NCBI GenBank assembly: GCA_964371245.1
Contig: CAYJKP010000002.1
Span: forward strand, 178,306 to 242,305
Direction of reading: 5' to 3'
Source of the DNA: an uncultured Gammaproteobacteria bacterium
GTDB lineage: Bacteria > Patescibacteriota > Patescibacteriia > JAHIZJ01
DNA length: 64,000 bases
Shown here: positions 773-59,727 of the stretch, piece by piece
How positions within the stretch are numbered: position 1 is the stretch's first letter
Layout: every line of letters begins with the position of its first letter
The notes under the pieces: generated by a model
Databases searched by the model: none
What the model saw: only the letters and a program-made list of their open reading frames with translations
What the model was told of the DNA's origin: nothing
Translations under genes and position numbers: made by a program

Positions 773-2029
773 ATGCGCCGAACTAGCCTGTACTTTTTCA
801 TCCTCACCTGTCTGTTCGCGGCCCAGCCGGCCCGATCACAGGAACCCCTCAGCCTCCGCTTCATGAGCCAGCGCACCCAGCTGGACCGGTATCTCGGTCA
901 GGACGCCGTCGGTCAAATCAGCGGACAGGACATCAAACTGTTCGTGGACAATTCACGGCGGACGCGGCTGCTCGCCCTGGAGATCGAGAACTACAACAAC
1001 GACGTTCCCGACTCAATCGGCCTGGAGCTGCCCGAAAAACGCCGCAACATCGGCGTCTGCCTGCCGCTCACGAATCACTTCACGTTTCGCTACGTCCACA
1101 ACTCGTACGAGTACAACATCTCCGACGACTTCACCACCGAAGGGTACTATCCGTGTTTCGATGACACGACCAACCGGATCATGTTGGGCTTTGAGGAAGA
1201 CAACGAGCGTTCCTTCCTCGCCTATGGGTATGGCCGGCAGCAGCTCGGCCATTGGCAGCTGTATACAGCTGCTTCCCAGGAACGATACGACAAGGGAATG
1301 CGACAGAAAGAGCGCGTGATCAATGAACGCCTTGGCTTCGCGACCAGCCGTCTGGTCAGCGGGCTGCAGCTGTTCGCCTCCGGCACCTACAACTTCGGCA
1401 CTGAGCGGCCGACGTGGTCAGCTGGTTTGGCCCGCCCCGTGCCGATGGGTTCCACTCAGCCCGGATTCTATGTCTCCGGCCGATACAAGCCGGAAGCCAC
1501 CTTCGTGCTGGCGATGTTCACGATCGGCACGAAGGCCTTCCCCCAGGAGATGGTGGCTGACCAGTTTACTTCTTCGATGGTTTCGACGATGCATACCAGC
1601 CGGATTGTGCGCGGTCGCGACTTCGATGTCATGGGCGGCAGCTCATCGGGTTACAAGATCCAGGAGATGAGCGATGTCGCCGGCTACCTCACCCTGGTGG
1701 ACACCGAAGTGACTGAGACTGCCTCAGTCCGAGAGCTCGAAGCGGCTCTCTACGGCACGTTGTCCTGGTGCATTGCCCGACTAGCCAACCCGTTCATCGG
1801 TTTCGCCCATTCGGAATCGCGCGACCTGATCTACAACCCCATGCTTCACGGCATGGATGATCCCGGACAGAGCTGGAACACCGTCATGCTCGGCGGAAAG
1901 ATCAACGTTCTGGCTAGGCCCGATCCTCGCGGAACCAGGAAAGCCGGTTATCTGAAACTGGAATCAAAGCTCCGTTTCAACCGACACGGCTTCAACGGCC
2001 TAAGCCTCGAAGGCACCTTCTGGCTCTAG
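773..2029 (+). CDS. hypothetical secreted / outer-membrane-like protein (high GC)
   Basis: N-terminal signal peptide (MRRTSLYFFILTCLFAAQPARS) and a beta-rich sequence with aromatic residues near the C-terminus (GTFWL). No family assigned. Confidence 0.5.
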   Translation: MRRTSLYFFILTCLFAAQPARSQEPLSLRFMSQRTQLDRYLGQDAVGQISGQDIKLFVDNSRRTRLLALEIENYNNDVPDSIGLELPEKRRNIGVCLPLTNHFTFRYVHNSYEYNISDDFTTEGYYPCFDDTTNRIMLGFEEDNERSFLAYGYGRQQLGHWQLYTAASQERYDKGMRQKERVINERLGFATSRLVSGLQLFASGTYNFGTERPTWSAGLARPVPMGSTQPGFYVSGRYKPEATFVLAMFTIGTKAFPQEMVADQFTSSMVSTMHTSRIVRGRDFDVMGGSSSGYKIQEMSDVAGYLTLVDTEVTETASVRELEAALYGTLSWCIARLANPFIGFAHSESRDLIYNPMLHGMDDPGQSWNTVMLGGKINVLARPDPRGTRKAGYLKLESKLRFNRHGFNGLSLEGTFWL

Positions 2030-2125
2030 GTCAAACCCGATTCATTTATTGATTCCGGGTTTTTTTCTTTGGTGCTATCTGTTACAATGGAGATGTTTCG
2101 ATATCTTAGCAATTAACCCATTTCT

Positions 2126-3262: not shown

Positions 3263-3520
3263 TTAGTTCCGTTTTTCGACGACGATTGAACACTTCGTCA
3301 GCAATGCGGCCATGGCGCCGAGGGCGGCAAAAACCGGCAGCAGTACTGCACCGACCGCCGCGAACGTTACTGGTATTTCCAATATCGACTCACCTTTTTC
3401 GTTTTTGATAATGATCCGGCGAATGTTCCCTTGATGGATTAATTCCTTTACTTTTTGGACGAGCTCGTCGCCGTTGATTTTGAATTCCTCTTGACTGGGG
3501 CTTGTTTTTTGGGTTGCCAT
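3263..3520 (-). CDS. DUF4342-like small protein
   Basis: 85 aa with a soluble N-terminal half and a Gly/Ala-rich hydrophobic C-terminal half (AAVGAVLLPVFAALGAMAALL) typical of DUF4342. Confidence 0.5.
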   Translation of the reverse strand: MATQKTSPSQEEFKINGDELVQKVKELIHQGNIRRIIIKNEKGESILEIPVTFAAVGAVLLPVFAALGAMAALLTKCSIVVEKRN

Positions 3521-3597
3521 AATGTTTGGAATAAATGGTAATGTTTTGCCTAGTCGTACGTATCATTATAACATATGCATCTTCTACGACTAGCCGG

Positions 3598-4296
3598 TCA
3601 CTCATCATAACAAACGTATTGGCACGGGTCGATCCAGCCTGACAGCTCGGCCTGGGTATTCACATAGCCTCTGATATTTACGTCCGCACCTTTGTGAAAA
3701 CCAAGGTGCAAATGCCTGCGCTCCCCGGCTGTTTCCACGCTGTATCCTTTTCCGAGAATACCCAGCTCATCACCATGATTGACGATATCACCAACACTCT
3801 GTTCAATACTTGATAATCGAAGGTGTCCATAAATAACTGTTATTGCTTCCCCATTGAGCTGACACGATTGCACCGCCACCCCGCCATATCCGCTGGCTGA
3901 CTTACGCACGCTGAGCGGTCCGGTGCAGACGGCATGAACCACGACGTCGGCATTAAGTTCTTCCGGGAAAATCTCGAAATCCGCCCCAGTATGATACCCC
4001 CGGAATCGCTCTGGCTGAATCGGCGATGTTTGGGGTGTGATAAATATACCAAATGGCTTTTTCGTCACCCTTTCTCCTGAACGCGTGAGCAGCGGTAGGG
4101 ATATGTCAGCGGCTGAATTTGTTTGAGCTGGAAGCGACGAATTATTGACAATCGTATTTGTATTGGACGGGGCCGGTGGCGTGTTCGATTGATTCTGGGT
4201 TGGCGAAGATAACAATCGAAGCGACAGAAAGACCGCACCAACGAAGAAAATTATTACGATGAGGATATATACCTTTTTCATAGTGTTGTTAGGCAA
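3598..4296 (-). CDS. M23 family metallopeptidase (LytM-type), membrane anchored
   Basis: N-terminal TM. HxxxD (HTGADF) and HLH (HLHLGFH) zinc-ligand motifs of the M23 family. Asn/Thr-rich linker. Confidence 0.75.
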   Translation of the reverse strand: MPNNTMKKVYILIVIIFFVGAVFLSLRLLSSPTQNQSNTPPAPSNTNTIVNNSSLPAQTNSAADISLPLLTRSGERVTKKPFGIFITPQTSPIQPERFRGYHTGADFEIFPEELNADVVVHAVCTGPLSVRKSASGYGGVAVQSCQLNGEAITVIYGHLRLSSIEQSVGDIVNHGDELGILGKGYSVETAGERRHLHLGFHKGADVNIRGYVNTQAELSGWIDPCQYVCYDE

Positions 4297-17903: not shown

Positions 17904-18368
17904 ATGCCAGACGAAAAATTTGTTACTCAATTAAAAGACTTAGACACGACAAAACAAAACACTGAACCCGATGAGAGTGTGAAATTATTCACATCAAATG
18001 ACAATGAGGGTGACATTTACTTAGAAGAAGATTACTCCGGCCAACTCGCCGTTGATGTTTATCAAACACCCAAGGACATTGTTATTAAATCGACCATCGC
18101 CGGCGTACAGCCCGAAGATCTCGACATCACCATCAACAACGACATGGTGACCATCAAGGGCATCCGTCGGAAAGAAGAGGTGGTGGCTGATGAAGATTAC
18201 ATTTATAACGAATGCCACTGGGGCGGTTTTTCCCGCTCGATTATTTTACCAGTCAATATTAAAGAAGATCGCGTCAAGGCGAATTTGAAAAATGGCATCT
18301 TGACCATTGTCCTCCCAAAAGCCGGAAAATCAAAAGTCCGCGTTGTTGAAGTTCATGAAGAAACTTAA
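17904..18368 (+). CDS. Hsp20/alpha-crystallin family small heat-shock protein
   Basis: Alpha-crystallin domain signature with the C-terminal GILTIVLPK motif. 154 aa. Confidence 0.85.
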   Translation: MPDEKFVTQLKDLDTTKQNTEPDESVKLFTSNDNEGDIYLEEDYSGQLAVDVYQTPKDIVIKSTIAGVQPEDLDITINNDMVTIKGIRRKEEVVADEDYIYNECHWGGFSRSIILPVNIKEDRVKANLKNGILTIVLPKAGKSKVRVVEVHEET

Positions 18369-18384
18369 TTTTAAATGTTTCACT

Positions 18385-19611
18385 ATGCAAAGGCATCTTT
18401 TCGTTCTTGCCTTTCTCAGCCTAGCCACGGCTGGCGTTATCACGGCACTGTCAGTCCACGCTGACTCGCTAAGCAGTGATGCTGTGGCGGGGTTAACAAA
18501 TAAAGATTTTCGTACTGCCCGAACCGAGGTTCAAAACAGCAAGCAATTTTTCCGCGACGCGAAAATTAATTGGGAAAAGGCGCGCGACGCCTATCAAGAA
18601 GACCCCAGCGCGAGCAACCTGGAGTCGGCCAAAAAATACGCCGTTCAGCTTATCAAACAGGCGATTGATGTTTATGATAAGCACTACATCCTCCTGGCCG
18701 CTCGGCTGAAGAATTCGACAGGCTTCGTCGAGGCCGAGCAGACGGCCATGCTCAATGATTTGACCGCTGAGCAGGCCTGGCTTCAAACTCAGCGCGTGGC
18801 GATTTCTGAGACCAATGATCCGGCCATCATCACTGATATCGCTAACCGGCTCAATACCTACCGGGTAGATAAAAGTGTTTTTGTAAAAAAGGTGGTTGGC
18901 GCCATTGCCAGCAGCCGGATCCAAACAACCTTGGCTCAAATGAACGATGCCACCGCTCGCGTCGATGATGATGTGGCGGTGTTAATCGCTCTTCAAAAAG
19001 ATACTGGATCGTTAACAAGCCCACGCGCGGATTTTGCCTTGAAGCTGGCAGCGGCAAAAGAAAAATACCAGCTTGGCCGCGATGGTTTCGCGAGTTTGGT
19101 GAATGCCGCGACGGTGGAACAAGATTTTGAATCAGCGCTGGCCAAGCTCCGCGAAGCCGGCGAAAAACTTACCGACGCCAAAACATCGTTGGACCAGATT
19201 ATCGCCGAACTGAAAAAAGTGAAAGCCTCGCGGGTCGGTGGCAACGGCGCGCTCTCTGCCCAGGGCGAGGGTAAATATGTTATATCTGCCAAAGAAGGGA
19301 CCGTCGCTATCGCCGCCGGTGAATCCGCCTCCTTAACCATATATGATCATGCCGGAGATGTGACGGTTGAGACCCAGGGAACAACCACCAAGGACATAGC
19401 TGGGCGCGGTACTGTATATACCGGCTTCACACAAGCCACCATTACCGGTGCCGATTTTCTGCTCGTCTACCTCGGCTCGACGACCGAACTGACCGCCAAG
19501 GGCACGGGCCGGGCGTATCTGAAAGGAACAGGCACGTTTCAAGCCGTACCGGACGGCGTGGCCGAAAGTTTCGCGGATGAAAACGGCGTCATTTTTAACC
19601 TTACTCAGTAA
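18385..19611 (+). CDS. hypothetical secreted protein (signal peptide, long coiled-coil/helical region, beta-rich C-terminus)
   Basis: Start moved to an internal ATG beyond the hsp20 stop. Signal peptide MQRHLFVLAFLSLATAGVITALSVHA. Confidence 0.5.
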   Translation: MQRHLFVLAFLSLATAGVITALSVHADSLSSDAVAGLTNKDFRTARTEVQNSKQFFRDAKINWEKARDAYQEDPSASNLESAKKYAVQLIKQAIDVYDKHYILLAARLKNSTGFVEAEQTAMLNDLTAEQAWLQTQRVAISETNDPAIITDIANRLNTYRVDKSVFVKKVVGAIASSRIQTTLAQMNDATARVDDDVAVLIALQKDTGSLTSPRADFALKLAAAKEKYQLGRDGFASLVNAATVEQDFESALAKLREAGEKLTDAKTSLDQIIAELKKVKASRVGGNGALSAQGEGKYVISAKEGTVAIAAGESASLTIYDHAGDVTVETQGTTTKDIAGRGTVYTGFTQATITGADFLLVYLGSTTELTAKGTGRAYLKGTGTFQAVPDGVAESFADENGVIFNLTQ

Positions 19612-19893: not shown

Positions 19894-20129
19894 CAGCCCC
19901 AGACGCCCGCGAGGCAATCGTAACGTCAGTTGAAGAGACAGCGGTTGTTCTCGATCTTGACGGCCAGAAAATTACGTGGCCGAAAAAACTCGCTCCAAAA
20001 AACGTGGCGGTCGGCGATCGGCTCATGCTCGCGCTTATGGATGTGGCCGCCTATCAAGCCAAGCGCGAAGAACTAGCCAAAGCAATTTTAAACGACATCC
20101 TTCAGGATAACGGAAACAAAGAGGCATGA
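19890..20129 (+). CDS. DUF3006-like small protein
   Basis: 79 aa. The pattern A.V..vE...AVl.ldg..i..p..l.P..v..GD.l fits DUF3006. Translationally coupled to neighbours. Confidence 0.45.
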   Translation: MTAPDAREAIVTSVEETAVVLDLDGQKITWPKKLAPKNVAVGDRLMLALMDVAAYQAKREELAKAILNDILQDNGNKEA

Positions 20130-22102
20130 CCGCAACGCCAGCAAAAAGCAAAAAAACGCCTCAACGGCGGTGGTTGTGGGTAACCCTAGCCGTCGTTTTT
20201 ATAATTATTATCGGTATCGCCGGCCTACTCGTCTATCAAGTCTCAGCCTACCACGACAGCGTGATCCCGGGCGTTCGACTGGCCGGACGGGCCCAGGCTG
20301 GATTCATGAGCCGTCTCAGCCAACCAGACCTTGAGTCGCTCCTCACCACCTACCAACAAAATATTGATGACGAAGGCTTTACTTTCGAATTTCAGACGCG
20401 AAAAGCAAATCTTCCCTCGCTCGTCCAGTCGACGGTCGATCCAGATCTTTCCCAGCAGCTTTTTTCGGTAGACATCACCGCGACGAAAGACGCCGTCTGG
20501 AGCTACGGCCATCACGCTTCGTTTGTCCGCAACGCGGGGGATGTTATGCGAGCGTTTTTTATCGGGATTGATGTCCCGGTCCAGTACACGCTTAATCGTG
20601 CCGGCGTGAAAAAAGTCCTACAGGAGAATTTTAAAGAATACGACAATCCAGCGACAAATCCGCAAATAGCCGTCCAGCCAGGCGGAACGATTTCCGTCAC
20701 ACCGGAGCAGTCCGGCGAAACCTTGGATTATGACCAAGCCTTGTCTGAATTAGCCGCTCAGATTGAAGCGCTTGATAATGAAACAATAACGCTCAAAAAA
20801 ATATATGACCAGCCGACAATCACAACCGATGAGATTGCGTCGGCTCGAACCGACCTCGGTACCCTGATAAAAACCCTTCCCTGGACACTCAGCTATGAAG
20901 ACAAGCGTTGGGCGATTACCTTGGCCGAGGTAACGCATTGGTTTCGCTTCAGCCGTCGTGACGATGGCTCGGTCACCTTCGATTTCGATCCCGCGGGTGT
21001 TGCCCAATTCCTCGATGCGACGCCCGGACCAATCATTAATGTTGAGGCGAAAGAAGGAAAATTCAAGATCAATAACGGCCGCGTCACGGAATTTCAAGTC
21101 AGTACGCCCGGCCAACACATTGACCTCGACAAGACAGTCGCTAATCTCAACGAAGCGATGATTGCAAAAGGCGCAACAGAAAGCCTGATCGCCGTTCAGA
21201 TAACCGAACCGCAGTCAAAAGAAACGGATGTCAACGAGCTTGGCATCAAGGAACTGGTGGCTGAAGGACGGACCGATTTCAAGGGCAGTCCAGCCAACCG
21301 GATACACAATATCACCGTCGGCGCCGAAACGCTAAACGGTCTCGTCATCAAGCCGGACGAGGAATTTTCATTGATCAAAGCACTCGGAAAAATCGACGCC
21401 TCAACCGGCTACAAGAGCGAGCTGGTCATCAAGGGAAATAAGACGGTGCCGGAATATGGCGGCGGGTTATGCCAAATTGGTACGACCTTCTTCCGGCTCG
21501 TTTTGAATACCGGCCTGCCGGTGCTGGAACGGCAAAACCATTCCTACCGCGTCTCGTATTACGAACCGCCGGTTGGTAAAGACGCCACGATCTATGATCC
21601 CAAGCCGGATTTTCGCTTTACAAACGACTATGATCATCACTTGCTTTTGCAGACCCGGATTGAGGGTACGCAATTGATTTTTGAGTTCTATGGTACCAAA
21701 GACGCGCGGACGATCGAACAGTCCGATCCGAAAATTTATAATTACGTCAGCCCTGGTCCAACCAAGATGGTTGAAACTGAAGATCTGGCCCCGGGCGAGA
21801 AAAAATGCACCGAAAAAGCCCACACCGGCGCTGACGCGGAATTCACCTATACCGTCACGTATCCGAATGGGGAGGTTAAACCAACCACCTTTAAATCACA
21901 TTATAAGGCATGGCCAGCCGTTTGTCTGGTTGGAAAACAGCCCAGCCCGCCTGAAACACCCCCGGTCGAACCACCCGCGACCAATACAAATGCAAACGCC
22001 AACACGAACGCCAACGTGAACACGAATTCTAACGCAAACACAAATACGACGACCAACACGAACACGAATAGCAACGCTAACGTTAACGCAGAAACCCCAT
22101 AA
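20126..22102 (+). CDS. VanW family protein (YoaR-like), membrane anchored, with Asn/Thr-rich low-complexity C-terminal tail
   Basis: N-terminal TM. VanW domain core (GYKSELVIKGNKTVPEYGGGLCQIGTTFF). C-terminal TNTNANANTNANVNTNSNANTN tail. Confidence 0.75.
   Translation: MTATPAKSKKTPQRRWLWVTLAVVFIIIIGIAGLLVYQVSAYHDSVIPGVRLAGRAQAGFMSRLSQPDLESLLTTYQQNIDDEGFTFEFQTRKANLPSLVQSTVDPDLSQQLFSVDITATKDAVWSYGHHASFVRNAGDVMRAFFIGIDVPVQYTLNRAGVKKVLQENFKEYDNPATNPQIAVQPGGTISVTPEQSGETLDYDQALSELAAQIEALDNETITLKKIYDQPTITTDEIASARTDLGTLIKTLPWTLSYEDKRWAITLAEVTHWFRFSRRDDGSVTFDFDPAGVAQFLDATPGPIINVEAKEGKFKINNGRVTEFQVSTPGQHIDLDKTVANLNEAMIAKGATESLIAVQITEPQSKETDVNELGIKELVAEGRTDFKGSPANRIHNITVGAETLNGLVIKPDEEFSLIKALGKIDASTGYKSELVIKGNKTVPEYGGGLCQIGTTFFRLVLNTGLPVLERQNHSYRVSYYEPPVGKDATIYDPKPDFRFTNDYDHHLLLQTRIEGTQLIFEFYGTKDARTIEQSDPKIYNYVSPGPTKMVETEDLAPGEKKCTEKAHTGADAEFTYTVTYPNGEVKPTTFKSHYKAWPAVCLVGKQPSPPETPPVEPPATNTNANANTNANVNTNSNANTNTTTNTNTNSNANVNAETP
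21980..22090 (+). repeat. imperfect tandem hexanucleotide-like repeat (AAY-RCN units) encoding the Asn/Thr/Ala tail of VanW
   Basis: aatacaaatgcaaacgccaacacgaacgccaacgtgaacacgaattctaacgcaaacacaaatacgacgaccaacacgaacacgaatagcaacgctaacgttaacgca. Confidence 0.6.
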
Positions 22103-22140
22103 TACGACGCCGTCACAAGATTTATCCCCAGGGGGGGCTC

Positions 22141-22169
22141 TTGACGGTGTTTTTTAGTTGTCGTAGAAT
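22141..22169 (+). promoter_or_regulatory. sigma70-like promoter (TTGACG-17-TAGAAT)
   Basis: Consensus-like hexamers at the start of a ~1 kb protein-free interval. Confidence 0.5.
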
Positions 22170-22176
22170 GCTTTTC

Positions 22177-22491
22177 ACGTGCCTAAAATCGGGCGAGAGT
22201 GGCGTAGTGGGGATCTCGCCCACCGGACCGAGAGTTTCGGCTCTCCACGGTGGATCGAGATCCCCCTCCCACTACTTCCATTGCACCTTCTTCTCGCACG
22301 GCATAGATAATGGGGTGAGGCCTCCCCTACACGTTCCAACGTGTATCGGTGGCCGAACGCATACAACACTGACACCAGGACGGTCATCCGTAAACCATGG
22401 AAGGTTCTCACCCCTGCTACCCCCGCCGCGCGCCATCACGTTACCCCTTTGTTGTACCCCTGGCACGTGATGGTCGCGCGGTTTTTCTTTT
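22177..22491 (+). ncRNA. candidate structured non-coding RNA (unclassified), ~310 nt, GC-rich, bounded by a promoter and a terminator
   Basis: No credible ORF: all six frames give short, overlapping ORFs. Multiple local helices, including mutually exclusive pairings GGGCGAGA/TCTCGCCC and GGGGATCTCG/CGAGATCCCC. Ends in a 15-bp GC stem plus T-run. Confidence 0.35.
22426..22491 (+). terminator. rho-independent terminator (CCGCGCGCCATCACG ... CGTGATGGTCGCGCGG + TTTTTCTTTT)
   Basis: Long GC stem with one bulge, followed by a T-run. Confidence 0.5.
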
Positions 22492-22493
22492 AC

Positions 22494-22523
22494 TTGACAA
22501 TTGGTAAAAAGGAATGATAGGAT
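22494..22523 (+). promoter_or_regulatory. sigma70-like promoter (TTGACA-18-TAGGAT) for a second short transcription unit
   Basis: Immediately follows the previous terminator. The unit ends at the 22758-22799 terminator. Confidence 0.4.
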
Positions 22524-22757
22524 GTGTCCGTCTTCGACAACCACACTACACGGAGGTGCAGTCGTGTCCAGACGGAACAATCATGTCCCGAGGTGCACTC
22601 AAGGCCATCCGCCGACAACAATGGAGGTGCGCTCTAAGTCGAAACACAGCACAATCTACGCTTGCCCATGTTGCGGTCGGGCGGAAACGGTCCACACCGA
22701 AAAAGGCAAGGTCGTCCAACCCGCCAACTGATCATTCCTCGGATCCGAAGAGTCTGA

Positions 22758-22799
22758 CCGTCTCGCCTGCGCGCAGAGACGGTTTTTGTATATTTTTCC
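22758..22799 (+). terminator. rho-independent terminator (CCGTCTCGCCTGCGC/GCGCAGAGACGG + TTTTTGTATATTTTT)
   Basis: Strong GC hairpin plus U-run. Confidence 0.6.
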
Positions 22800-23033
22800 A
22801 CCTTTACTTTTTTTGCAAACACCCTACAATACAAAACAGCTGATCGAGTACCTGCAGTCAAGAGAATTTTCCTGAGGAGATAGAAAAGGTGAAACACCTG
22901 TTCTAGCCTCAGAAAAACCCCCATGCTTTTCGTGACTGCAGATACCTGACCAGCTGAATAAATCCAATATCGATACAAATCTTCAATTCTCGATTTTTTC
23001 GAGAACGCGCTATCTTATCACACCTAAAAAATC

Positions 23034-23063
23034 TTGTCAAGACCCCTCAAAAGGTGGTACACT
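23034..23063 (+). promoter_or_regulatory. sigma70-like promoter (TTGTCA-18-TACACT) for the NIF3-ruvB-queH operon
   Basis: Hexamers ~30 nt upstream of the 23094 start. An upstream palindrome TTCTCGATTTTTTCGAGAA is at ~22986-23004. Confidence 0.45.
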
Positions 23064-23093
23064 GAGGTGACTTATCTTCTCTAAAAAAAGCAT

Positions 23094-24074
23094 ATGACGA
23101 TCAAAAACATTTATGACCTGGCAGTTCGTCTCGGCATTGCCAATGATCTCCGTGGCCAAAAAGCGGTCGTAAAAAAGCTCAATAAAGAACGGGCAAAATA
23201 TGAGGCGCTCCGCGGCGATGACCGGAAGGAATTCGACACCGAACGGCTGGTTAACCCTTTTTCTGATACGCGCATTTACTACGGCAATCCGGAGCAACCG
23301 GTCCGACGCGTCCTGGCTGGCATCGATATCGAAGCGGCTGAAATACTCGTGGCCAAAGAGCTGAGCCGGCAGAAACCCATTGATTTGATTATCTCGCACC
23401 ATCCGATCGGCGTCGGCTTGGCCGGCCTCGACGAAGTGATGCAGATGCAAGCGGAAATTTACGCTCTCTACGGCGTCCCGATCAATATCGGTGAATCATT
23501 GCAGCGCAAGCGAATCAGTGAGGTAGCGCGCTCGATCTCGGCTGAGAACCATAATAAGACCGTCGACGCCGCCCGGCTGATGAATATGCCGTTGATGTCA
23601 ATGCATACGGCGACGGATAATCTGGTCGCAAAATTCCTTGATACGCTCATCAAACGGCAGCGCCAAACATTGGACACCGTTGACGATGTCATGAAATTAT
23701 TAAAAACGATACCGGAATATGCCGCGGCCATGCGCCTAAAAGCCGGCCCGAAACTCTTCGCCGGGCACTTGGATCACTCCCTCGGGAAAATTGCGCTCTC
23801 GGAAGTGACGGGCGGCACTTCGGGCGCGAAAGAAATTTTCGCCGAACTCTCGCGCGCCGGCGTCGGGACGATTGTCGGCATGCACATGTCCGAAGAACAT
23901 AAGAACGAAGCAGAGAAAAATCATCTCAACGTCATCATCGCCGGACATATTTCATCCGACTCGATCGGCTTAAATTTGTTTCTCGATGAACTTGAGAAAA
24001 AAGGCATCGAGATAATTCCCTGCGGCGGTCTGATCCGCATCAGCCGAGTAAAAAAAGTTCAGCGTAAAAAATAA
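23094..24074 (+). CDS. Nif3-like dinuclear metal center protein (YqfO/GTP cyclohydrolase 1 type 2 family)
   Basis: Conserved SHHP motif (LIISHHPIGVG) and a C-terminal metal-binding region with the IIAGHISSD segment of NIF3 family proteins. Confidence 0.7.
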   Translation: MTIKNIYDLAVRLGIANDLRGQKAVVKKLNKERAKYEALRGDDRKEFDTERLVNPFSDTRIYYGNPEQPVRRVLAGIDIEAAEILVAKELSRQKPIDLIISHHPIGVGLAGLDEVMQMQAEIYALYGVPINIGESLQRKRISEVARSISAENHNKTVDAARLMNMPLMSMHTATDNLVAKFLDTLIKRQRQTLDTVDDVMKLLKTIPEYAAAMRLKAGPKLFAGHLDHSLGKIALSEVTGGTSGAKEIFAELSRAGVGTIVGMHMSEEHKNEAEKNHLNVIIAGHISSDSIGLNLFLDELEKKGIEIIPCGGLIRISRVKKVQRKK

Positions 24075-25101: not shown

Positions 25102-25680
25102 ATGCCCCGCCTGCTTCTCCACGCCTGCTGCGCGCCGTGCGTGGTCTATCCGATCGAGCGGCTTGAACCCGAATTTGAACTCGGCGTGTTTTTTTATAAT
25201 CCAAACATCCAGCCGGCCGAGGAATATGACAAGCGGCTGTCCGAATTGATCCGCTTTTGCCAAAAACAGAATATGGTTCTTATTGAACGACCGTACGATA
25301 CTGCCGAGTGGTTTGATAAAATAAAAGGTCTCGAGAACGAGCCCGAGCGCGGACGGCGGTGCGATATCTGTTATGAAATGCGCTTAAGAAAAACGGCCGA
25401 GTACGCAAAGAAAAATGGCTTTGCCTGGTTTGGCACCGGACTGACCAGCAGTCCGTATAAAAAGGCGGACAAAATAAACGAGCTCGGCCAGCAATTAGAA
25501 AAAGAGCTGGGTGTGAAATATTACGCCGCTGATTTCAAGAAAAAGGGCGGGGCGCTCCGGGCCGTGGAGCTTTCAAAGAAATACGGTTTTTACCGCCAAA
25601 ATTATTGCGGGTGCGTATTTTCGAAACGGGAACGCGAGACAAAAGACGCAAAACGTAGAGAAGCCTTAAGGCTTCTCTAA
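25102..25680 (+). CDS. queH: epoxyqueuosine reductase QueH (DUF208)
   Basis: N-terminal HACCAPC cluster and C-terminal CGC motif characteristic of QueH. 192 aa. Confidence 0.8.
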   Translation: MPRLLLHACCAPCVVYPIERLEPEFELGVFFYNPNIQPAEEYDKRLSELIRFCQKQNMVLIERPYDTAEWFDKIKGLENEPERGRRCDICYEMRLRKTAEYAKKNGFAWFGTGLTSSPYKKADKINELGQQLEKELGVKYYAADFKKKGGALRAVELSKKYGFYRQNYCGCVFSKRERETKDAKRREALRLL

Positions 25681-25709
25681 ATACAATGCGCTTGTTCGCG
25701 TTTTTAGCC

Positions 25710-25738
25710 TTGACAAAACTACGCTTTTACTGTATTAT
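25710..25738 (+). promoter_or_regulatory. sigma70-like promoter (TTGACA-17-TATTAT) ahead of a structured leader
   Basis: Consensus hexamers. Followed by a 13-bp inverted repeat GAAGACCGAAaag...ctttGTTCGGTCTTC. Confidence 0.45.
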
Positions 25739-25903
25739 ACTCGGTTCATTGAATAATCATGAGAAGACCGAAAAGAACGCTTGTTTAATCAAGTGCTTTG
25801 TTCGGTCTTCTCAAATGAGGAGCCTGGATTTGGTGCCGGAACGCTACCGAGCATCGAATTCACGACACGCAACTTCCGCACGATGCCTGAAAGGAGGCGC
25901 GCG

Positions 25904-26209
25904 ATGGGAGCGGTGCTACTCAGTCACCAGTTGATCGATGGTGGGTTCTTCTGTGCGCTCGGCACCACCGAGCATCCTGGAATGACGCAACCCGGCGTCA
26001 TCGTCAAGAAGGGGACCCCCTTCACCTGGGACTACAACAACGGCACTTTCGTCGTCTACGACGAGGCCGGCCGACCCTGGATCACCGGCGATCGTGCGGT
26101 CATGGATCGCTTCGAGGTCGCCTGCCACCAGCTCAGCCGCGGGGCATACGTCCCGCACTCGAACGACTCCGGCCACTTCATCCGGGCTATCCTCCCGACG
26201 CTACTGTAG
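25904..26209 (+). CDS. hypothetical small protein on a high-GC insert between queH and queA
   Basis: SD AGGAGG 7 nt upstream of ATG. 101 aa. Followed by hairpins and a T-rich stretch. No family assigned. Confidence 0.35.
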   Translation: MGAVLLSHQLIDGGFFCALGTTEHPGMTQPGVIVKKGTPFTWDYNNGTFVVYDEAGRPWITGDRAVMDRFEVACHQLSRGAYVPHSNDSGHFIRAILPTLL

Positions 26210-26309
26210 CCAGCTGTTCGTTCCGCTCTTGCCTCTGCGGATTTTTACCACTTCGGTGGTAAGGATCCCGGGGGCTTTTCTTTTCCAGAAAAACACGTAC
26301 AATACGTAT

Positions 26310-59440: not shown

Positions 59441-59727
59441 CTCTGTCACCCGCCGCCGCGCAACGCATTGTTGCTACCGGCGGTTTTTCTTACCTAGCGG
59501 AAATTGTTAATAAATGTCTTTATAAAAATTATAGCGATATTTATACACAGCCTGTTGATAAATTTCCTTGACACCCATACGGCACGGGACTAAGGTGGAA
59601 ACAACGATATCTGTGAGGCGATGAAGCGTAGTACTTAATTGGTCGCTTAGCCATCCTAGTTAAATAGAGGAGGGCTGGGACTACGCGGAGCCAGTAGCGA
59701 AACCGATCACGATTTCACTGACTTATC

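Follow-up and report, generated by a model that had tools for sequence, protein, structure and literature searches.

A probable island of three small genes, two of them for structured RNAs, in the VanW–NIF3 spacer of a Patescibacteria genome

What occupies a spacer of about a kilobase that gene callers leave empty? Patescibacteria have tiny, gene-dense genomes and are almost uncultured. The DNA analysed here, a 64-kb stretch from an uncultured bacterium of this group, also called the candidate phyla radiation (CPR), and hereafter referred to as the window, contains such a spacer, 991 nt long, between the genes of a VanW protein and a NIF3-family protein; gene callers placed no gene there in any assembly examined. 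We conclude that the VanW–NIF3 spacer is probably a small-gene island made of three separate transcription units: a structured RNA (unit 1), an orphan microprotein gene (unit 2) and, on the opposite strand, a rod-shaped RNA (unit 3). Promoter-like sites number 6 in the 1.4-kb region that was scanned, as opposed to 1.0 ± 1.1 in shuffled sequences. A preliminary description of the same DNA had recognised two units in the interval and missed the third, the best conserved, which lies on the minus strand at 22826–23040. As stand-alone small RNAs and a small open reading frame (ORF), the three units add to kinds of gene that are already familiar, and none is known to work in a new way; units 1, 2 and 3 have been matched to no described family.

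Relatives of the locus were fetched through their NIF3 proteins. The exact NIF3 protein of the window is present on at least 23 contigs, the longest listed being 918 kb, and contigs of the same species are essentially identical to one another and add little covariation. Beyond these, the protein is 97% identical to that of the metagenome-assembled genome (MAG) JBAZLK01 (locus L001, to which L071 is the same), 83% to that of JAQTMH01 (L003), 72% to that of L073, 70% to those of L074 and L075, and 45–63% to those of dozens of further Patescibacteria MAGs. The VanW–NIF3 spacer measures 693 nt in L073 and 773 nt in L074 and L075; in other NIF3 relatives the spacer is missing or the gene context is different.

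Along the comparison of the window with L001, nucleotide identity is about 90% in the background, 91–95% in unit 1, 64–81% in unit 2 and 97–99% in the final 300 nt before NIF3, and the region of unit 3 is the sole part of the spacer that can be aligned in more distant genomes (L003, L004 and L006). At the position of units 1 and 2, L003 carries an unrelated 250-nt segment (3480–3735) with several hairpins, weak structure (z = −2.4) and no sigma-70 promoter, indicating that the spacer turns over quickly between lineages.

A structured RNA gene downstream of VanW

Unit 1 reads on the plus strand and consists of the following elements.

22141–22169, plus strand: unit 1 promoter, TTGACG-17-TAGAAT, found by promoter scan, with 10 of 12 positions matching
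22177–22491, plus strand: unit 1 RNA of about 315 nt, delimited by fold, promoter and terminator; the predicted 5′ end, ACGUGCC, lies 7–8 nt past the −10 hexamer
22191–22297, plus strand: domain 1, a long imperfect rod hairpin with the core helix 22209–22218/22256–22265, supported by covariation
22312–22414, plus strand: domain 2, multibranched and closed by GGGGUGA/UCACCCC, a helix altered on both strands in relatives
22425–22491, plus strand: domain 3, a long hairpin with a GCGCG base, which doubles as the intrinsic terminator in the window (U-run 22482–22491)

Unit 1 is a real, conserved, structured non-coding RNA gene with its own promoter and terminator. The terminator hairpin pairs 22425–22441 with 22465–22481, forming 17 bp with one bulge, and is followed by T5. 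The segment 22176–22495, with a GC content of 0.58, folds at −133.3 kcal/mol (z = −6.6), and 0 of 100 shuffled sequences are as stable. The preliminary description had placed this promoter, the unit 2 promoter and the unit 1 terminator where we find them, and its view of unit 1 as a GC-rich structured RNA is borne out by the fold, by the covarying rod and by the homologues in L073 and L074 described below. Three helices that it had read from the sequence, GGGGAUCUCG/CGAGAUCCCC, CACCG/CGGUG and GAGAG/CUCUC, are all present in both the minimum free energy (MFE) fold and the consensus fold.

Comparison with L001 reveals a pattern of change that respects this fold. Both promoter hexamers are identical and 4 spacer bases differ; within the RNA, 20 of the 31 differing columns are unpaired in the fold computed from the window alone (P = 0.004). 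The two-sequence consensus has 0 broken pairs, 3 changes to G–U and 1 pair changed on both sides, and the three changes, from G–C or A–U to G–U, fit the plus strand, since they would be mismatches on the other strand. Indels of 3, 2, 1 and 1 nt break a 109-codon ORF and rule out a conserved reading frame, and L073 and L074 share no ORF with a Shine–Dalgarno (SD) sequence in this unit.

In the more distant loci L073 and L074, the promoter lies in the same place after the VanW stop codon (TTGACC-17-TAGACT and TTGACT...TAGACT, respectively) and the 5′ ACGUGCC is conserved 7 nt past the −10 hexamer. The homologous RNAs measure 367–395 nt and fold with z values of −10.6 (L073) and −5.2 (L074). In sequence, these loci resemble the window only weakly, and only over the promoter and the first 100–200 nt or so (nhmmer E about 1e-4 to 0.3). 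The domains are collinear, with the closing strands of domain 2 at positions 136, 121 and 121 and again at 231, 225 and 233 in the window, L073 and L074, and the GCGCG-base hairpin of domain 3 starting at 249, 239 and 252. The core of the rod covaries from GGGGAUCUCG/CGAGAUCCCC to GGUGGACCGUGC/GCGCGGUCUACC and GGAGGGUCAUCC/GGAUGAUCCUC. Across the window, L001, L073 and L074, 92.5% of the cells in the rod alignment are paired, as opposed to 32–50% when the partners are slid by 1–3 columns, and 8 of the 20 pairs are altered on both sides, a result that 0–2 of 500 shuffles reach; the preliminary description had proposed to look for such covariation in relatives. The closing helix of domain 2, read directly, shows compensatory changes (GGGGUGA/UCACCCC in the window, GGGUGGA/UCCACCC in L073 and GGGCGGG/CCUGCCC in L074), and L073 and L074 have the base helix of domain 3 in common with the window, with partial covariation. 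Termination in L073 and L074 is assigned to a further hairpin downstream of domain 3, whereas the domain 3 of the window has itself acquired the U-run. In all lineages the terminators of unit 1 carry their U-runs on the plus strand.

Because whole-length MAFFT alignment misaligned L073 and domain 2, only the rod was modelled; among 66 loci this covariance model, R2, finds no rod beyond the four known unit 1 sequences. The unit 1 family is thus narrow and fast-evolving, within one Patescibacteria subclade. Unit 1 is present and unit 2 absent in L073 and L074, so unit 1 is independent of unit 2.

Searches with the Rfam 15 models give no sequence or structure match to unit 1. At the gathering score, the only match in the whole window is a c-di-GMP-II riboswitch at 59606, with none in the VanW–NIF3 interval; at E ≤ 10, the region 22000–23150 returns only microRNA, CRISPR-repeat and similar noise, and the homologous loci L073, L074, L003 and L072 return nothing relevant. 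These scans, together with a negative ARAGORN search, agree with the earlier failure to match either plus-strand unit by eye to a known housekeeping RNA or riboswitch. No ORF of at least 30 amino acids in the interval matches Pfam or NCBIfam.

Just upstream of the unit 1 −35 hexamer lies a conserved TTATCCCCA box (22125–22140 in the window, 2326–2343 in L073 and 2262–2284 in L074), which may represent an operator or an UP element, or else mark where the VanW transcript ends.

A rod-shaped RNA divergent from NIF3

On the opposite strand, next to NIF3, the comparison brings out a second RNA.

23006 to 22826 (approximate), minus strand: unit 3, a rod RNA of about 180 nt, with the rod at 22956 to 22837, a U-run at 22836 to 22826 and the invariant bulge CACGAAAAGCAUGGGGG
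23040 to 23012, minus strand: unit 3 promoter, TTGACA-17-TAAGAT with a TG extension, found by the scan; the motif CTTGACAAG...TGCTAAGAT is present in 8 of 10 aligned lineages
23034–23063, plus strand: NIF3 promoter, TTGTCA-18-TACACT, found by the promoter scan and divergent from the unit 3 promoter

Judged from these alignments, unit 3 is the best-conserved element of the spacer and more widespread than unit 1. Its 120-nt hairpin (22837–22956) is conserved in L003, L072, L073, L074, L004 and L006, and a covariance model, R1, places unit 3 in ten lineages, always divergent from NIF3. In this alignment 89.4% of cells are paired, compared with 42–53% when the partners are slid, and 33 of the 49 pairs have changed on both sides, which 0 of 500 shuffles reach. 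The predicted transcript (about 23006 to 22826) has a fold z of −9.0. Several features assign it to the minus strand: the consensus fold reaches −64.4 kcal/mol with 49 pairs there, as opposed to −38.4 kcal/mol with 40 pairs on the plus strand; many A–C mismatches on the plus strand are G–U pairs on the minus strand; and the U-run after the rod exists on the minus strand only. A plus-strand promoter-like site at 22803–22830 (TTTACT-16-TACAAT) is probably spurious, given the minus-strand orientation of unit 3.

An invariant bulge, CACGA(A/C)AAGCAUGGGGG, breaks the continuity of the rod opposite an equally invariant CUUCUUGAC. The divergent promoters of unit 3 and NIF3 share a palindromic −35 element, TCTTGTCAAGA (23031–23041), and may compete for RNA polymerase. 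In L077, a second and weak R1 match (1985–2089, plus strand; 17 bits, E about 0.01) adjoins that locus's copy of unit 3.

Unit 3 resembles the 6S and Ms1 types of RNA polymerase-binding rods in its length of about 180 nt, its strong sigma-70 promoter, its long and nearly continuous rod and the invariant single-stranded bulge beside a weak, G–U-rich helix. It differs from 6S RNA in having a 10-nt one-sided bulge in place of a two-sided central bubble and a rod core of only 120 nt, and no Rfam model matches it, those for 6S scoring nothing at E ≤ 10. By this analogy, a 6S-like RNA is a possible but doubtful identity for unit 3. In the scheme that we favour, unit 3 would be an older rod-shaped small RNA on the opposite strand of the island.

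A microprotein gene between the two RNAs

Between units 1 and 3 lies a short gene on the plus strand.

22494–22523, plus strand: unit 2 promoter, TTGACA-18-TAGGAT, found by the scan, with 10 of 12 positions matching; L001 keeps the −35 hexamer and has TACGAT as the −10
22552–22558, plus strand: GGAGGTG, the SD sequence, separated from the GTG start by 5 nt (4 nt in L001, where it is conserved)
22564–22731, plus strand: gene of a 55-amino-acid protein, MSRRNNHVPRCTQGHPPTTMEVRSKSKHSTIYACPCCGRAETVHTEKGKVVQPAN, with a GTG start and the stop codon at 22729–22731; frame conserved in L001
22758–22799, plus strand: unit 2 intrinsic terminator, CCGUCUC...GAGACGG plus a U-run; the stem is kept in L001 and the loop has changed

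The coding signature in this interval contradicts the earlier view of it as protein-free and holding no credible ORF. The orthologue in L001 (3470–3637) has identical length, start and stop, and since its GTG is the first start after an upstream stop codon, the longer, 76-codon version that can be read in the window is not conserved. Among the long ORFs of the window, only roughly one in four has an SD-like core. Over the 55-codon gene, 48 of 168 positions differ from L001 (29%) with no indel, as opposed to three indels in the 140 nt of flanking sequence, and the differences fall 12, 12 and 24 on the three codon positions (dN/dS about 0.24). As many as 38 of the 56 aligned codon positions, stop included, encode the same residue, which amounts to 67% of the 55 residues. 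Among 20,000 trials with 48 random substitutions, 27% keep the frame open, 0.3% have at least 24 third-position changes (P = 0.003) and 0 reach the observed amino acid identity. This pattern of substitution argues that unit 2 is a protein-coding gene. The RNA of unit 2 (22529–22800) is no more structured than random sequence (z = +0.24), as expected for an mRNA, and its terminator, a hairpin at 22758–22782 followed by T5, is as first described. Two smaller ORFs proposed earlier do not stand as separate genes: the 36-residue ORF beginning MEVRSKSK is the C-terminal part of the 55-residue ORF, and the tiny basic ORF is in another frame, with a stop codon just upstream in the window and no SD-like site.

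The two orthologous proteins are basic and hydrophilic, with isoelectric points (pI) of 9.7 and 9.9 and grand average of hydropathy (GRAVY) values of −0.95 and −1.08. Both keep C11, H15 and a C34-P-x-C37-G knuckle (C-x3-H...C-P-x-C), residues through which the putative zinc-binding protein may hold its metal. A single-sequence AlphaFold model has one helix and three strands. In this predicted fold, as well as in its size of about 55 residues, its basic character, its C-P-x-C-G knuckle and the upstream C-x3-H, the protein resembles small zinc-ribbon proteins (HVO_2753-like, L24e and L37ae), from which it differs in that only three Cys and one His are conserved, the matches to PDB sequences (E = 0.1–8) and to known structures (Foldseek E ≥ 0.4) are non-significant and Pfam and NCBIfam give none. 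PHROG families likewise show no match.

Unit 2 is the part of the spacer with the lowest identity to L001 and, together with one stretch in the ORF at 18307–19611, among the lowest in the 9-kb comparison; it diverges about three times faster than unit 1. Unit 2 would be a separate gene, either recently acquired or recently born.

How unit 1 might act and what else the locus could be

Unit 1 conserves shape over single-stranded sequence, which favours a trans-acting, structure-dependent RNA; a small RNA of this type is our best guess. Unit 1 would act by virtue of its fold, binding a protein or serving as a scaffold, and would be neither a cis-acting switch nor an antisense regulator of a neighbour. 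It is reminiscent of the raiA-motif, HEARO and OLE classes, which are large structured bacterial non-coding RNAs of unknown function that came from comparative genomics: like them, it is a stand-alone intergenic RNA of several hundred nucleotides with several domains and compensatory helices, no conserved ORF and a narrow phylogenetic range. Unlike them, it comprises four sequences in one subclade, has a poorly conserved middle domain and has no recurrent protein-gene partner.

Two other ways in which the RNA could act, on the genes downstream or on its neighbour unit 2, deserve comparison with this reading. The genes downstream of unit 1 are on the same strand, and as a cis-acting leader, a riboswitch or attenuator, unit 1 would use mutually exclusive helices to set whether transcription stops at 22482–22491 or reads on into unit 2 and NIF3-ruvB-queH-queA. 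The preliminary description had indeed noted a UCUCG segment that can pair with either GGGCGAGA or CGAGA, calling the arrangement switch-like or pseudoknot-like; further, the 5′ end CACGUGCC is complementary to GGCACGUG (22462–22469), overlapping the top of the 3′ arm of the terminator, and the MFE fold of L073 has an equivalent 5′/3′ pairing, UACGUGCC/GGCGCGUA. The alternative helix GGGCGAGA/UCUCGCCC does exist as sequence, but it has no clear counterpart in L073 or L074 and no support in homologues, and in the consensus fold GCGAGAG (22193–22199) pairs with UUCUCGC (22291–22297) to extend the base of the rod, so that a repeat of UCUCGC accounts for the apparent alternative. The alternative pairings are invariant in L001, which makes that comparison uninformative for them. 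As for the 5′/3′ pairing, which is good in the window and L073, it would take away just 5 of the terminator's 17 pairs, and it is weak in L001, where a C-to-U change leaves a G–U pair and a G-to-A change breaks a pair into C–A, and in L074, with only 3–6 such pairs. The unit 2 promoter, with a perfect −35 hexamer, begins 3 nt past the U-run of unit 1, and in L073 and L074 the RNA is closed by a terminator of its own, beyond which lies a convergent RNA gene; with its own terminator followed by a separate promoter or a convergent gene, unit 1 is not positioned as a cis-acting switch, and the riboswitch models give no match. We consider such a leader improbable. Somewhat less so, yet still unlikely, is that units 1 and 2 form one module, in which the RNA is bound by the basic Cys/His protein or, in the manner of a type I toxin–antitoxin system, represses translation of that protein by pairing at its ribosome-binding site. 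Units 1 and 2 adjoin on the same strand, the protein is basic (pI 9.7) and its weak, non-significant sequence and structure matches are mostly nucleic-acid-binding zinc-ribbon proteins. In tisB/istR-like loci, type I toxin–antitoxin systems whose antitoxin RNA is encoded in trans next to the toxin, the small ORF and the small RNA beside it likewise have separate promoters and their best complementarity on the ribosome-binding site; here the longest uninterrupted complementarity, AUUGCACCUUC (22280–22290) with GGAGGUGCAGU (22552–22562), falls exactly on the SD sequence of the ORF. This 11-bp match is nevertheless at the level of chance (score 25, shuffle mean 24.9 ± 2.8), and whole-duplex energies are no better than those of shuffles. 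A GRAVY of −0.95 marks the protein as hydrophilic and no membrane peptide, in contrast to type I toxins; L073 and L074 have the RNA and lack the ORF; and the roughly threefold greater divergence of unit 2 also weighs against a single module.

The remaining alternatives deny that unit 1 is a new functional RNA at all. It could be a housekeeping RNA (RNase P RNA, signal recognition particle (SRP) RNA, transfer-messenger RNA (tmRNA) or 6S RNA) so strongly diverged in a fast-evolving phylum that the Rfam models miss it; it is about the right size, has its own strong promoter and is highly structured, and none of these four RNAs was detected anywhere in the 64-kb window. Yet neither the window nor the homologues from the three lineages give any of them at E ≤ 10, ARAGORN is negative, and direct reading finds no P4/CR-I motif of RNase P (GGAAAGUCC), no SRP GGAA loop with AGCAGC and no GGGG...CCACCA of tmRNA, motifs that are universal; moreover, the sequence evolves far faster than essential RNAs do, and the RNA is missing from the locus in L003 and L072, both of them close relatives. 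We regard this identity as very improbable. Patchy distribution, with unit 1 not in L003 and L072 and present in L073 and L074, also suits a different idea, that units 1 and 2 have no function and are an insertion in decay or what is left of a selfish element, with hairpins that reflect GC-rich palindromic sequence and not selection. Units 1 and 2 have no homologues elsewhere, and unit 2 is among the most diverged stretches of the L001 comparison. We give this idea little credence: the promoter hexamers, terminator and helices are retained while loops and spacers vary, compensatory changes span lineages that share only about 70% identity in NIF3, and the unit 2 ORF is under purifying selection with no indels. 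Phage and plasmid records show no similarity, matches to viral contigs are chance 17–19-mers, and the window holds no extra copies.

Several points count against a trans-acting unit 1 and a functional unit 2 as set out here. The scaffold role of unit 1 was reached by exclusion, not by positive evidence. Only four distinct sequences are known, from three lineages, and two of them are 91% identical, so that few independent events underlie the covariation; alignment across lineages fails for the inner branches of domain 2; and the closer relatives L003 and L072 have no unit 1 at the locus, L072 having nothing there, which makes unit 1 dispensable. For unit 2, the structural model is of moderate confidence (predicted local distance difference test (pLDDT) score of 67.5) and has no significant structural match. 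A word search of 5.8 billion proteins found no homologue, the only two hits of a HMMER scan of 1.84 billion representative proteins are false positives, both repetitive, and a metagenome scan gave only the L001 contig. Its dS of about 1.0 is two to three times higher than the 0.31–0.45 of VanW and NIF3, possibly as a result of recombination, hypermutation or diversifying selection. Finally, L065 and L069, of the same species and at about 4× coverage, differ from the window only at the codons of C34 and P35 (22663–22666), and these variants may be assembly errors or a real polymorphism of the CPxC motif.

Two further candidate readings of unit 1 were rejected. As a sponge of the CsrB/RsmZ type it is not enriched in GGA motifs, with counts of 5, 8 and 11 where shuffles average 3.7, 5.7 and 5.8, only L074 being mildly above the mean. 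As a remnant of the minus-strand genes found at the same position in L077 and L079, it shows no similarity by tblastn.

Implications

Few structured bacterial RNAs exceed 300 nt, and some of those that do have proved biochemically unusual. A kilobase that contains no long gene and three promoter–terminator units suggests an investment in small RNAs and microproteins that gene callers miss; a brief literature search found no described study of regulatory or small RNAs in Patescibacteria. Unit 3 gives the phylum a concrete candidate global regulator, and the orphan ORF of unit 2 a testable case of a lineage-specific microprotein. Current understanding is unchanged unless a function is found for units 1–3.

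We tentatively put forward a broader reading, which may well prove to claim too much. The VanW–NIF3 spacer of one Patescibacteria subclade would be a conserved RNA island with two undescribed RNA classes, unit 1 (315–395 nt) and unit 3 (possibly a 6S-like regulator of RNA polymerase), and the microprotein gene of unit 2 would have arisen or been captured in the 3′ tail of the unit 1 gene in one species group. If true, this would be a rare opportunity to see how a gene is born when the genome is streamlined.

Neighbouring genes and other observations

The island is flanked by housekeeping neighbours.

20126–22102: VanW/PG_binding_4 protein
23094–24074: NIF3-family protein
beyond NIF3: RuvB, QueH and QueA

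The end of the VanW protein is a low-complexity tail rich in Asn and Thr, NTNANANTNANVNTNSNANTNTTTNTNTNSNANVNAETP (21960–22102). ARAGORN found no tRNA or tmRNA genes in the 64-kb window. The c-di-GMP-II match mentioned above is a borderline one to the c-di-GMP-II-GAG riboswitch aptamer (59606–59716, plus strand; 40.5 bits, gathering score 40). In the gap between QueH and QueA (about 25650–26300), a segment of about 600 nt is missing from L001 and L071; the ORF called there is 101–108 amino acids long and has no Pfam match. Upstream of VanW, the 434-amino-acid ORF at 18307–19611 contains a hypervariable stretch (19200–19500) with 58–75% identity to L001, as opposed to about 90% elsewhere.

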